From positions 1 through 47,975 of the forward strand of contig JAGLCH010000223.1 of assembly GCA_023146355.1 (NCBI GenBank): a stretch of DNA of 47,975 bases, given 5' to 3'. Each line of letters opens with the position of its first letter. Within the stretch, counting starts at the first letter, position 1. The notes beneath the pieces were generated by a model. The model saw only the letters and a program-made list of their open reading frames with translations. It made no database searches and was not told where the DNA came from. Positions 27,333 to 30,599 of this stretch are shown piece after piece. Source of the DNA: Bacteriovoracaceae bacterium. Its GTDB lineage: Bacteria > Bdellovibrionota > Bacteriovoracia > Bacteriovoracales > Bacteriovoracaceae. The translations under genes were made by a program, and so were the position numbers.

Positions 27333-30300
27333 ATGGATGCTATTTATGACAACATTGTCATTGGAAGTGAACTCACTTCTTTTGCCACGACTAAGTCGTT
27401 ACTAGAACTATCTAGTAACTCAATTCAGTTATGTTCGCTTTCTAAGCGAGATATATTTTCTTATGACCAGTACAAAATTCACCGCCCATTTTTCTTCTTT
27501 AACCGAGAAGTTGAGACATGGAAGTTAATTGATAGTTTAGGGCTTCGTTGTGAAGTTGCCACTATCGATTTGAAGGATTTTCTTCCCCATATATTTATTA
27601 GTAATTCCATTGAAAGGATCCCCCTTGGGGTTATGGCCCTTCTCACATCATCTATTGTTACAATAAAAGCAAAGCTTGCATTGCTCAAAAATATTTTTTT
27701 GCCCATCGAGTTATCACAAAACACCTCATTATATGATTACTTAAATAATATCTTTGAAAGTGATGAGGCAGAAGTTGTTGCTGAAATAATCTGTTCAAAG
27801 CTAAGAGGAGGGGAGCCTAGAAAGTTAGACTATCTTGGACTTTACCCCGAATTGCTCCCTCTCTCTCACAGCAAAGTTTCACTTTATAGTGCTTTTACAA
27901 AAGGACTGCGTAGAGAGTTTGGCGGTCAAAATAGAGTTAGAGTGATAAGTGGCGGTGAGGTTAAGATAAAGTCTAAGCTAGTGACTGAGCTTGGAGTTAA
28001 TGTTCATTATGGTGTAACTGTAAACTCGATAAAAAAGAGTGGAGCTACTTATCGTATCTATGCCGGTGACTCAGTTTATCTCTGCCATAATATTGTTTTT
28101 GCATGTCCTGCAGTTCTCTCTGGTGGCCTTCTGAAGGATATTGATCTTGAGTTGTCTGACTTGCTTCGTTCAATACAATATTCTCGATCGATAGAAGTAT
28201 CTCTAACATTTAAATCAGAGGATCTTTCTCTCCCAATTAAGGGAAGGGGTATTATTTTTCCAGAGCAGGAAAAAACTAGAATTCGCCGATTAAATCTTCT
28301 TGGCAAGGATCATCAGTTTACTTATATCCGATGCATGTTCGATGGTCATGATGGTAATTTATGGGGTAGATCTGATTCAGACCTTGAAGATCTAGCTTAT
28401 TTGGAAGTGAAGTCAATACTTCGTTCAAGTGGAATTGTTATTGATTCATGGATTAATAAAAAAGAGAATAACCTGCCCCTTTACCATATCGGTCATAAAG
28501 ATATTGTAGAGTTAATTGAGTCAAGGCTTTCTGCCTTAAGTGGAGTTCATATGATTGGTAATTTTTTGCAAGGGATTAGATTGGAAAATATTTTAAGACG
28601 AAAAGTTGTTCCTATTGAAGGTGCTAGTATCCCTAAAATAGTTCTGGATGACCCTTATCTTGGGCCGCAAACAGAAGATGTGGTTGACCGAAGAGAGCGA
28701 ACATATCAAAAAGAAATCGAATTATCTCGTGAGCAGGGGGACCTTGTTTCCTTCGCTTCAGGGCACCACTATTTCGGAATTCATCAACAAAAAAATCAAC
28801 TTATAATTCGCGAATGGGCACCAAATGCAACGAGTTTATACCTTCTTTGTGAGCATAACGAGTGGGGCAAAAGAGATGGATATTGTTTTCGTTCTCTCCC
28901 AAATGGCGTATGGGAACTATCATTAGAAAGTAAGCTTCTAGACCACCTTGATCAGTATCGATTACTTGTAGAGTGGGATGGTGGTTCTGGTGAAAGAATT
29001 CCTAGCTACGCAAACTATGTGGTTCAAGACCCAAAAACACATTCATTTTCTGCCTGTGTCTGGAGTCCTAAGAAAAAATATAAATTTAAAAGCTCTCTAC
29101 CCAAAAAAAATCCTGCTCCAATCATTTATGAGTGTCATGTGGGAATGAGCTCAGAGGAGGGGAAGGTCAACAACTATAATGACTTTACTGATAATGTACT
29201 CCCTGGAATTGTCGAGGGTGGGTACAATACCGTTCAGATCATGGCCATTCAAGAACATCCTTACTACGGTTCGTTTGGTTATCAGGTATCAAACTTTTTT
29301 GCTCCTAGCTCGCGCTCGGGAACCCCAGATGAATTAAAGCGACTCATCGACACCGCTCATGGGCTTGGGGTAAAAGTCATTATGGATATTGTCCATTCAC
29401 ACGCTGTTAAAAATGAAAATGAGGGACTGGGTAATTTTGACGGTACAAGATTTCAATACTTTCATGAAGGGGAGCGTGGGCTTCACCCTGCTTGGGATAC
29501 ATACTGTTTTAATTACGCCAGTAATAGTGTCCTTCATTTTTTACTTTCCAACGTCCGCTACTGGATGGAGGAATTCCAGTTTGATGGTTTCCGTCACGAC
29601 GGAGTGACAAGTATGCTTTATCTCCACCACGGTCTTGAGAAATCATTCTCGCAATATAGTGACTATTTTGGTGATGACGTGGATCATGATGCAATTACCT
29701 ATCTTAGCCTTGCCAATAAAATGATGAAAGATATTAATCCCAACTCCATTTCTATAGCAGAGGACATGAGTGGCCTTCCTGGTATCGCAGCACCTGTTGA
29801 AGATGGTGGCCTTGGATTTGATTATCGTCTTGCAATGGGGATTCCAGACTTTTGGATTAAAATGATTAAAGACCGAAAGGATGAAGAGTGGAGCGTAAAA
29901 GAGATCTGGGATACTTTAATGGATGTTCGCTATCATGAGGGAAGCATTTCATATGTTGAGTCTCATGATCAAGCACTTGTTGGAGATAAGACTACACTAT
30001 TTAGATTAATTGATAAGGACATGTATACCAATATGAGTCTTGAGACTCGAAATCATACTGTAGACAGAGGCATTTCTGTTCAAAAGCTTATTCGCTTGAT
30101 TACTTTAATTACATCCAAAGACGGCTACCTAAACTTTATGGGCAATGAGTTTGGACATCCTGAATGGATCGATTTTCCAAGAGTTGGTAATGATTGGTCA
30201 TACCATTATGCTAGAAGGCAATGGAGTTTGAGAGATAATCCTAAACTGTGCTATAAGTTTTTATCTGACTTTGATAATTCTATGCTTGAACTCGCTAAGA

Positions 30301-30599
30301 AATATAAGCTGCTTGATTGCGACTGCGCTAATGAATTTTGGATTCATGATGGCGACAAAGTTATTGCTGTTCAGCGTGGTGAGCTATATTTTGTCTTCAA
30401 CTTCGCCCCCCAGAATTCATATAGAGACTATATGATCGCCTTCCCCAAAGGTGAGTATGAACTTGTGATGCATTCCGATCAAGAGTTGTTTGGAGGTTAC
30501 AATAATTTACCATCTGTGGGATACAAGCAGTCAACATTTGATGACAAACTGTCTTTATACATCCCTTCGAGAACAGTTCAGGTATTTAGGAAAGTCTGA
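27333..30599 (+). CDS. Fusion protein: degenerate protoporphyrinogen-oxidase (HemY)-like N-domain plus eukaryote-type GH13 1,4-alpha-glucan branching enzyme
   Basis: Residues 1 to ~422 align by eye with HemY/PPO (LIDSLGL, NIVFACPAVLSGGLL, LPLYHIGHKDIVELIE...VHMIGNFLQGIRLENI), but the FAD GxGxxG motif reads GSELTS. From residue ~436 the sequence is GBE1-like: DDPYLGP, EWAPNA, YECHVGM, GYNTVQIMAIQEHPYYGSFGYQVSNFFAPSSR, FDGFRHDGVTSMLY, AEDMSG, YVESHDQALVGDKT, MGNEFGHPEWIDFPR. One uninterrupted ORF. Confidence 0.85.
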   Translation: MDAIYDNIVIGSELTSFATTKSLLELSSNSIQLCSLSKRDIFSYDQYKIHRPFFFFNREVETWKLIDSLGLRCEVATIDLKDFLPHIFISNSIERIPLGVMALLTSSIVTIKAKLALLKNIFLPIELSQNTSLYDYLNNIFESDEAEVVAEIICSKLRGGEPRKLDYLGLYPELLPLSHSKVSLYSAFTKGLRREFGGQNRVRVISGGEVKIKSKLVTELGVNVHYGVTVNSIKKSGATYRIYAGDSVYLCHNIVFACPAVLSGGLLKDIDLELSDLLRSIQYSRSIEVSLTFKSEDLSLPIKGRGIIFPEQEKTRIRRLNLLGKDHQFTYIRCMFDGHDGNLWGRSDSDLEDLAYLEVKSILRSSGIVIDSWINKKENNLPLYHIGHKDIVELIESRLSALSGVHMIGNFLQGIRLENILRRKVVPIEGASIPKIVLDDPYLGPQTEDVVDRRERTYQKEIELSREQGDLVSFASGHHYFGIHQQKNQLIIREWAPNATSLYLLCEHNEWGKRDGYCFRSLPNGVWELSLESKLLDHLDQYRLLVEWDGGSGERIPSYANYVVQDPKTHSFSACVWSPKKKYKFKSSLPKKNPAPIIYECHVGMSSEEGKVNNYNDFTDNVLPGIVEGGYNTVQIMAIQEHPYYGSFGYQVSNFFAPSSRSGTPDELKRLIDTAHGLGVKVIMDIVHSHAVKNENEGLGNFDGTRFQYFHEGERGLHPAWDTYCFNYASNSVLHFLLSNVRYWMEEFQFDGFRHDGVTSMLYLHHGLEKSFSQYSDYFGDDVDHDAITYLSLANKMMKDINPNSISIAEDMSGLPGIAAPVEDGGLGFDYRLAMGIPDFWIKMIKDRKDEEWSVKEIWDTLMDVRYHEGSISYVESHDQALVGDKTTLFRLIDKDMYTNMSLETRNHTVDRGISVQKLIRLITLITSKDGYLNFMGNEFGHPEWIDFPRVGNDWSYHYARRQWSLRDNPKLCYKFLSDFDNSMLELAKKYKLLDCDCANEFWIHDGDKVIAVQRGELYFVFNFAPQNSYRDYMIAFPKGEYELVMHSDQELFGGYNNLPSVGYKQSTFDDKLSLYIPSRTVQVFRKV

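Follow-up and report, generated by a model that had tools for sequence, protein, structure and literature searches.

The window, a 47,975-nucleotide stretch of DNA from a Bacteriovoracaceae bacterium (contig JAGLCH010000223.1 of assembly GCA_023146355.1; this genome is called G000 below), encodes on its forward strand a single protein of 1088 aa. In this protein, a domain derived from the protoporphyrinogen oxidase (PPO) HemY is joined in frame to a glycogen branching enzyme (GBE) of the eukaryotic type. The fusion is real and rare, and it is built from two known families. We moderately favour the explanation that the protein is an active branching enzyme carrying a catalytically dead HemY relic, which would be under relaxed purifying selection and have a non-catalytic role at most. 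The evidence comes from the motifs of both halves, a separate hemY gene, the rates at which the halves evolve, and the states in which the locus is found across the family. The coordinates of the features are collected in Table 1.

The fused gene and its branching-enzyme half

One open reading frame (ORF) of 1088 aa was originally predicted to join two parts near nt 28600. This is how the gene reads, as there is no internal stop and the two parts lie at residues 1-426 and 436-1088. Contigs from three public runs (X1, X2 and X3) of two studies were aligned onto positions 27200-30700. One X2 contig crosses this whole region with 1 difference and 0 gaps, and one X1 contig covers 27200-30292. X1 and X2 may themselves be the source of the window DNA, but X3 belongs to another, independent study. 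Its 624-bp contig over 28395-29018 shows 0 differences and bridges the junction at ~28600-28640, with no stop or frameshift at ~28600. No insertions or deletions relative to the window were listed for the X1-X3 contigs in the aligned region. The runs carrying the window DNA are labelled as cold-seep and seawater metagenomes, and no RNA data set carrying the region was listed. Two recorded contigs, the longer of 116141 bp, encode exactly this 1088-aa protein.

A genome of the same genus, G001 (a single contig of 3.7 Mb), encodes a 1087-aa ortholog at the same locus, likewise preceded by genes for ornithine carbamoyltransferase (OTC), a 285-aa protein and arginine deiminase. Since the junction is bridged by contigs of two studies and G001 holds the same fusion, the junction is confirmed as real and an assembly artefact is ruled out. 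The fragmented state of G000 (399 contigs, 87% completeness) would suit a mis-assembly or a sequencing error joining two genes. Against this stand the contigs from three runs that cover the junction without insertions or deletions, together with orthologous fusions in G001, in two further genomes (G270 and G385) and in a metagenomic protein (P0013), and such an artefact is hardly credible. No in-frame ATG, GTG or TTG was found around the junction when the DNA was read, which leaves a separate branching enzyme without a start.

The second half was expected to be a complete GH13 enzyme of the GBE1 type with its catalytic residues intact, and the alignment to human GBE1 and the four GH13 regions agree with this. 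In a search against solved structures, residues 434-1086 match human GBE1 (4bzy) with an E-value of 7.8e-194. Residues 436-1088 align to chain residues 35-696 of the same structure (E 1.8e-193), including the N-terminal helical segment that is typical of eukaryotic branching enzymes. Rice BEI is matched at E 4.6e-184 and the best bacterial GlgB structure at 3.6e-55. The bacterial GlgB models are all missed, with 227.9 bits for TIGR01515 (cut-off 463.95), 264.5 for NF003811 (741) and 261.8 for NF008967 (577), and the fusion gene is the top TIGR01515 match in both G000 and G001. The branching half is thus nearer to the eukaryotic GBE/BE than to bacterial GlgB (GH13_9), and is GH13_8-like by similarity, not by a formal CAZy call.

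A CBM48, a GH13 barrel (residues 647-819; PF00128, 39.3 bits against a gathering score of 22) and a C-terminal beta domain follow each other in this order, each above its Pfam gathering score. None of the four GH13 regions varies between the 4 full-length fused proteins. Alignment to human GBE1, whose nucleophile we take to be D357, places the nucleophile of the window protein in region II. The likeness to human GBE1 (4bzy, 5clt) and rice BEI (3amk) extends over the whole length of residues 436-1088, the catalytic Asp/Glu/Asp included, and the window protein differs from them by its 426 extra HemY-derived N-terminal residues. Because the catalytic residues are intact and the similarity to solved enzymes is full-length, this half is most likely active and would cut an alpha-1,4 chain and re-attach it via an alpha-1,6 bond.

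The HemY-derived half and the separate hemY gene

The first ~420 aa were originally described as a HemY/PPO-like fold, collinear with B. subtilis HemY up to a YHIGHK...GN...G motif, and structure comparison supports this description. Residues 51-423 match M. xanthus PPO (2ivd) at E 2.1e-12 and residues 46-421 match its B. subtilis counterpart (3i6d) at E 3.1e-12, and the collinearity runs through YHIGHK (384-389) and IGNFLQG (408-414). An AlphaFold2 (AF2) model of this N half, built from 100 aligned sequences, has a predicted local distance difference test (pLDDT) score of 90.3 and a predicted template-modelling score (pTM) of 0.89. Its best Foldseek match is 2ivd_B (E 4.5e-33, TM 0.84), followed by CgoX, human PPOX and B. 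subtilis PPO. The top 12 listed matches are PPO/CgoX chains, with monoamine oxidases lower. The model is predicted to have the three-domain PPO fold, with FAD-binding, substrate-binding and helical membrane-binding domains (FAD, flavin adenine dinucleotide). The alignment behind it consists mostly of true PPOs, which biases it toward the PPO fold, and the sequence similarity agrees with it.

The cofactor signature is lost in this half. The GSELTS reading of the GxGxxG motif had been pointed out earlier, and it proves to be conserved in the genus (GSELTS, GSNLTS, GSDLTS). Gly13, Gly16, Leu17 and Glu35 are all replaced, although these positions are 95-99% conserved in 96 canonical PPO rows. In the same rows, Glu is found at the beta-2 end in 96% and the GG in 99%. 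None of the three elements of the FAD-binding signature (GxGxxG, acidic beta-2 end, GG) is present in the window N half. Its GFGFL-x-PR region reads GRGIIFPE, and a six-residue loop is absent. Among the 36 columns conserved in at least 85% of the 96 rows, 19 are kept in the window N half, 18 in that of G001 and 19 in that of P0013, compared with 34 in the free HemY of the window's genome. The window protein reaches 46.9 bits with TIGR00562 (residues 94-421), below the curated cut-off of 97.85, and 16.0 bits with Amino_oxidase PF01593 against a gathering score of 19.8, no single stretch passing. In comparison with the PPOs 2ivd, 3i6d and human PPOX (3nks), the window N half shares the three-domain fold and the P-x-Y-H-x-G-H and G-N-x-x-x-G motifs; it differs by changes at 17 of the 36 conserved positions and by the attached glycoside hydrolase.

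A separate HemY of 443 aa is encoded on contig C362 of G000. It is canonical, with GGGLAG, LLEKD and VGG motifs, and is 25% identical to the fused N half. On this contig (L002 1-4144), the canonical hemY lies directly 3' of a hemN-like gene, and CxxCH-rich neighbouring ORFs were read by eye as nrfH/nrfA-like. G001 has the same hemY and hemN pair. With TIGR00562, the free HemY of G000 scores 297.3 bits and the G270 fusion 307.4, while the G001 fusion (70.4) and P0013 (51.1) remain below the cut-off. Because the motifs are lost and a free paralog is present, the window HemY half most likely neither binds FAD nor oxidises porphyrinogens.

The N half might instead be a still active oxidoreductase, using flavin or another dinucleotide at an atypical site, so that the protein of the window genome would be truly bifunctional. 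The retained fold and C-terminal motifs (P-x-Y-H-x-G-H and G-N-x-L-x-G) and the fully canonical look of the related G270 protein would fit this. We consider it very unlikely, given the four replaced residues, the deleted GG, the altered GFGFL-x-PR with its deleted 6-residue loop, the scores below the cut-offs of both TIGR00562 and PF01593, and the canonical hemY elsewhere in the genome.

The two halves evolve at different rates. Between G000 and G001, the number of nonsynonymous substitutions per site (dN, Nei-Gojobori) is 0.068 for OTC, 0.081 for arginine deiminase, 0.088 for the 285-aa ORF, 0.187 for the GBE half, 0.206 for HemN, 0.286 for the free HemY and 0.679 for the fused N half. Synonymous sites are saturated in all seven of these gene segments (proportion of synonymous differences, pS, 0.64-0.82). 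The N half is the fastest of the seven and, with 0.679 against 0.187, evolves ~3.6 times faster than the GBE half to which it is attached. Correspondingly, the protein identity between G000 and G001 is 36% for the N half and 76% for the GBE half, and the identity to P0013 is 31% and 70%. The proportion of nonsynonymous differences (pN) in the N half is 0.447, against a saturated pS of 0.739, and ~430 N-half codons have stayed open in three diverged lineages. Purifying selection is thus relaxed, not absent.

States of the HemY half in the family and the origin of the fusion

At E ≤ 1e-30, the GBE half was found in 11 of 301 genomes sampled from the phylum; within the family, 12 of 237 genomes and 10 of 69 genera hold it at E ≤ 1e-100. 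Long open frames are present in four of these 12 genomes, namely G000 (1089), G001 (1095), G270 (1145) and G385 (812). In the other eight, open frames of 668-741 aa encode the GBE alone. A close match to the N half was detected in one of 41 related genomes, G001.

The fusion is not unique to the window genome, and a relative even carries a version with an intact HemY half. This is G270, from another genus of the same family, whose 1138-aa HemY-GBE protein (P0165) has the same architecture and junction spacing as the window protein and lies at the syntenic locus. The GBE halves are 57% identical. P0165 differs from the window protein by its canonical HemY half, which passes TIGR00562, carries the motifs GGGIAG, LLESD, CGG, GFGYLVPR and AIPQYNLGH, and is 47% identical to the free HemY of G000. 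It is the sole HemY hit in the G270 genome (97% complete), and this fusion is probably bifunctional, judging from its motifs.

A much reduced form is found in G385, in one genus. Its 807-aa protein begins with a 149-residue Rossmann remnant, in which three pieces of the HemY half follow each other in collinear order: the N-terminal beta-alpha-beta (YDYIIVGEGLFA ... TFLEQSSK), a segment around VVFALKAHDCAKLLDNIDAKLA, and the C-terminal HLYLVGSF ... helix. Compared with the G270 protein by BLASTP, the middle piece matches at E 7e-07 and the C-terminal one at 0.007, and the first gives a weak collinear match (E 3.7). The remnant matches the divergent N-half profile by hhalign with E 2e-06 and a probability of 89%. 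BLASTP and hhalign were relied on here, as MAFFT misplaced the first 38 residues of the remnant.

Four states are therefore seen at one syntenic locus, i.e., an intact fusion (G270), a full-length divergent one (the window's genus and P0013), a ~150-aa remnant (G385) and none, which suggests the stepwise loss of a fused enzyme domain. Free HemY copies are present in G308, G276, G384 and G381, and none was found in G385, G015, G469 or G305 with the query used. An intact fused HemY half is the sole copy in its genome, whereas genomes with a decayed half, or without one, either carry a free hemY or gave no HemY hit. Another N-terminal extension at the same site was noticed in G015 (L105, 9195-9380), whose unfused GBE has ~55 lysine-rich residues (KKKVVKKTSSKK...) before D-x-Y-L.

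A single origin of the fusion appears likely. Counted by hand, the GN/GD/GS motif and the D-x-Y-L at the start of the GBE half are 31 residues apart in G000, G001 and G270, 30 in P0013 and 32 in G385. The 285-aa and deiminase genes lie directly upstream of the fusion in G000, G001 and G385, and in G000, G001, G270 and G305 the opposite strand downstream carries the KCE/kamDE genes of lysine fermentation. In the GBE tree, the 14 sequences from the window's phylum group together in one clade (SH-aLRT 97). The base of this clade is unresolved, and the mini, canonical and divergent fusions branch from it at scattered points. For the four full-length fusions, a single clade of their GBE halves is not rejected by an approximately unbiased (AU) test (p-AU 0.306). 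The first GBE tree included a wrong ORF for L082 (branch length 5.6); later GBE trees leave out L082, L023, L095 and P0006, and the tree of the 14-GBE clade also L027.

The course of events that we propose is as follows. A family ancestor would have fused hemY in frame to a branching-enzyme gene, and one genus (G270) would keep this ancestral form, with the canonical HemY half as its only HemY. In the window's genus, the separate canonical hemY beside hemN would serve haem synthesis. Freed from the haem constraint by this gene, the fused copy may have lost its FAD-binding motifs. It would be kept in frame and folded while drifting toward loss, and other genera would have trimmed it to the remnant or have none. 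As these related genera lost it, the branching enzyme can evidently do without the HemY half. Any residual role would be non-catalytic, in the folding or solubility of the branching half, perhaps also in placement or assembly; the simplest reading of its retention is a passive role in the folding and solubility of a long protein.

Several observations weigh against a decaying relic of single origin. The AU test rejects the monophyly of the four fused HemY halves (p-AU 0.0113), which could mean two fusions, and the G270 GBE half groups with unfused genes (SH-aLRT 88-93). In addition, all trees are quick searches. P0013, from the divergent clade, still has GAGLTG and LLEQD, with the GG motif gone, so that cofactor or nucleotide binding may persist in some members of that clade. 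The purifying selection that remains on the N half would suit a newly gained function as well. G000 further encodes a 402-aa GH57 protein without an NCBIfam name, which may branch. The fusion is accordingly described as the only branching enzyme of family GH13 that was found, and not as the sole branching activity. Finally, both the loss of FAD binding and the branching activity are read from sequence.

The tree results would favour the view that HemY was fused to a branching enzyme more than once in the family, which would point to selection for coupling and not to one accident followed by decay. We regard this as improbable. The junction spacing is within 30-32 residues in all five fused forms, the locus is syntenic, and the GBE halves are compatible with monophyly. 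The divergent HemY halves sit on long branches of 1.1-2.3 changes per site, and one would not expect the fused HemY halves to form a clade if the fused copy had given rise to the free hemY genes through fission or duplication. The genes upstream of the unfused GBE gene were also read in G305, G308 and G276, and no hemY was found among them; with hemY not beside the unfused GBE in these genomes, there is no standing adjacency to fuse repeatedly. In G305 (L014 3593-4903, minus strand) and G308 (L015 3529-4890, minus strand), this upstream position holds a conserved ORF of ~440-450 aa with hydrophobic, membrane-like stretches. HemY motifs are missing from it, and Pfam gave no match for the G305 copy. 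The upstream ORF of G276 is homologous to the S26 signal-peptidase gene of the window.

Alternatively, the HemY half may have gained a new non-catalytic function, either as a ligand-sensing or regulatory domain (for a tetrapyrrole, a nucleotide or a glucan) or in membrane attachment, and determine how active the branching half is or where it is located. Its frame is open and its PPO fold is confidently predicted despite 64-70% sequence divergence, and its pN lies far under the saturated pS. Moreover, the clade motifs RGGE/D-x-x-K and NL-x-x-RSD are invariant in the three divergent full-length forms, and the helical and substrate-binding subdomains are whole in the window's genus. This explanation is nevertheless unlikely. 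The N half evolves fastest of the seven segments compared, and the cofactor motifs vary between members of the clade. The domain is cut to 149 aa in G385 and absent in 8 of the 12 GBE-holding genomes, which argues against a function on which the branching enzyme depends. Also, the full-length AF2 model has a pTM of 0.65 and no confident inter-domain arrangement, with a linker pLDDT below 50. The low pLDDT of several catalytic-domain loops in that model is probably due to thin coverage of the GBE half, with just 13 alignment rows (9 free GBEs plus the 4 full-length fusions). Predicting the N half as a homodimer (2 x 430 residues) gave a score of 0.00, which has no bearing either way.

The original prediction of a pseudo-enzyme reused for regulation therefore stands in its first part, as a pseudo-enzyme fits the TIGR00562 score and the 19 of 36 columns kept; for the second part, a slowly decaying relic is favoured over regulatory recruitment. 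More speculatively, and with little weight in our judgement, the fusion may have been selected as a bifunctional, membrane-associated haem oxidase and GBE in the ancestor and in G270. The HemY half of the window's genus would then now be a cofactor-free tetrapyrrole or redox sensor, tuning glycogen branching to haem or oxygen status.

Both halves are of textbook families, and the main value of the fusion is as one stage of a natural time series, in which a fused domain is retired once a free paralog takes over or its function is unneeded. Models of pseudo-enzymes and domain loss usually rest on single snapshots, whereas several states are present here at one orthologous locus in one family. 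The series is also a caution that 'Rosetta stone' fusions do not by themselves prove that two pathways are functionally linked. Proteins like the window fusion should be annotated as branching enzymes, and they should not be counted as a second PPO in reconstructions of the haem pathway.

Database records, gene features and neighbouring genes

An exhaustive HMMER search with the N half over 1.84 billion representatives gave 2030 hits at E ≤ 0.001, of which the best 150 were listed. Only two reach E ≤ 1e-30: P0012, a 205-aa fragment 80% identical to the window N half, and P0013, a 1099-aa fused protein of metagenomic origin (30% identical by the search's own figure). The others among the listed 150 are free PPOs of about 310-620 aa, with E ≥ 1.8e-24. 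Word-index searches, which need shared words and are not exhaustive, returned no fusion beyond the query, P0165 and P0013. In the first of them 8 proteins passed, with the N half only in the query; in the second 9 passed, with GH13 domains only in P0165; in the third P0013 alone passed. The five nearest proteins of similar length to the GBE (663-676 aa) have no HemY domain. A metagenome scan with N-half patterns matched 552 stretches, of which 2 were confirmed, both ordinary free PPOs of high-GC organisms.

Bacterial relatives of the GBE half are common, with 591 GH13_8-type loci confirmed in a scan of named genomes, mostly of Bacteroidota and Desulfobacterota by their record titles. None of the 80 that were listed matches the query before residue 390, so that, among these loci, the N half is no general N-terminal extension of bacterial GH13_8 enzymes. 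Two oddities came up beside these searches. P0007, a 954-aa metagenomic protein, combines CBM48 and GH13 with alanyl-tRNA synthetase domains (PF01411, PF07973, PF02272), and locus L033, titled Candidatus Saccharimonas, gives an unusually long match of 3435 nt. Either could be a further unusual fusion involving a GH13_8 enzyme, or could stem from a mis-join.

Long N-terminal segments are known from other bacterial GBEs. In a survey of 9,387 bacterial GBE N-termini, restricted to sequences of 500-1000 aa (Wang et al. 2019, PMC6339891), type 3 enzymes have N1 preceded by an N0 extension longer than 100 aa. As described in that paper's main text, these proteins resemble the window protein in their long segment ahead of CBM48, but they are GH13_9 GlgB proteins, mostly of Actinobacteria, with an undefined extension, unlike the GH13_8-type enzyme with a HemY domain in the window. 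The words 'oxidase' and 'fused' are absent from the same main text. A full-text literature search found no description of a PPO/HemY-branching enzyme fusion or of PPO pseudo-enzymes, in keeping with the earlier remark that this architecture was not known to have been described. P0165 is present as an NCBI-sourced entry with both Pfam domain sets precomputed. As far as the searches show, the architecture is in the databases and is not discussed.

Table 1. Features of the fusion gene and its 5' flank (positions in the window)
Feature	Position	Strand	Basis or remark
Terminator-like hairpin just 3' of the arginine deiminase stop codon	27212..27231	+	Consensus match only
Shine-Dalgarno-like AGGTG, 6 nt upstream of ATG	27322..27326	+	Sequence read directly
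Fusion gene, 1088 codons + stop	27333..30599	+	Single ORF, zero internal stops
HemY/PPO-derived domain, residues 1-426	27333..28610	+	Three-domain PPO fold (predicted), cofactor motifs degenerate
GSELTS in place of GxGxxG, residues 11-16	27363..27380	+	Degenerate dinucleotide-binding motif
LCSLS at beta-2 end; ribose-binding Glu replaced by Ser35, following GG motif deleted	27429..27443	+	Alignment to PPOs
Retained C-terminal PPO motifs YHIGHK ... IGNFLQG	28482..28574	+	Alignment to PPOs
Junction/linker, residues 427-435	28611..28637	+	pLDDT below 50 at residues 427-431
GH13_8-type 1,4-alpha-glucan branching enzyme, complete, residues 436-1088	28638..30596	+	Alignment to 4bzy
CBM48, residues 481-559	28773..29009	+	PF02922, 28.8 bits, cut-off 22.4
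GH13 region I, DIVHSH	29385..29402	+	Alignment to human GBE1
GH13 region II, FDGFRHD, nucleophile Asp756	29580..29600	+	Alignment to human GBE1
GH13 region III, AEDMSG, acid/base Glu810	29757..29774	+	Alignment to human GBE1
GH13 region IV, ESHDQ	29958..29972	+	Alignment to human GBE1
Alpha-amylase C-terminal beta domain, residues 1003-1086	30339..30590	+	PF02806, 54.6 bits, cut-off 21.2

The hairpin after the deiminase gene has an 8-pair stem with 6 G-C pairs and a T-rich tail. Together with the AGGTG before the ATG, it suggests that the fusion gene probably has its own transcript and would form a transcription unit apart from the arc genes.

Both G000 and G001 also encode glycogen-synthase-like transferases and two alpha-glucan phosphorylases, and no GlgC above cut-off was found in either genome. 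Contig C56 of G000 (L113 99-5405, minus strand) carries genes for a GT4/GT5-like glycogen synthase (437 aa), the GH57 protein mentioned above, and an 851-aa alpha-glucan phosphorylase with DUF3417. Three other CBM48 proteins of G000, on contigs C382, C154 and C104, have open frames of 910, 934 and 874 aa and all contain YNWGYD, which looks like a pullulanase motif, a label given from reading the sequences. Two of the three start with signal-peptide-like hydrophobic stretches, which suggests that these may be secreted debranching enzymes.

In the window, the 285-aa ORF (25083-25940, plus strand) lies between the ornithine carbamoyltransferase and arginine deiminase genes and has no Pfam or NCBIfam match. 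It is kept at the same position in G001 (87% identical) and G385 (55%), and could belong to the arginine deiminase gene set as a member not yet described. Directly 3' of the fusion gene, a 144-aa ORF (30823-31257, plus strand) is likewise without a family match in Pfam or NCBIfam. Its copy in G001 is 72% identical and is separated from the fusion gene there by two inserted genes, for TonB and a TonB-dependent receptor.

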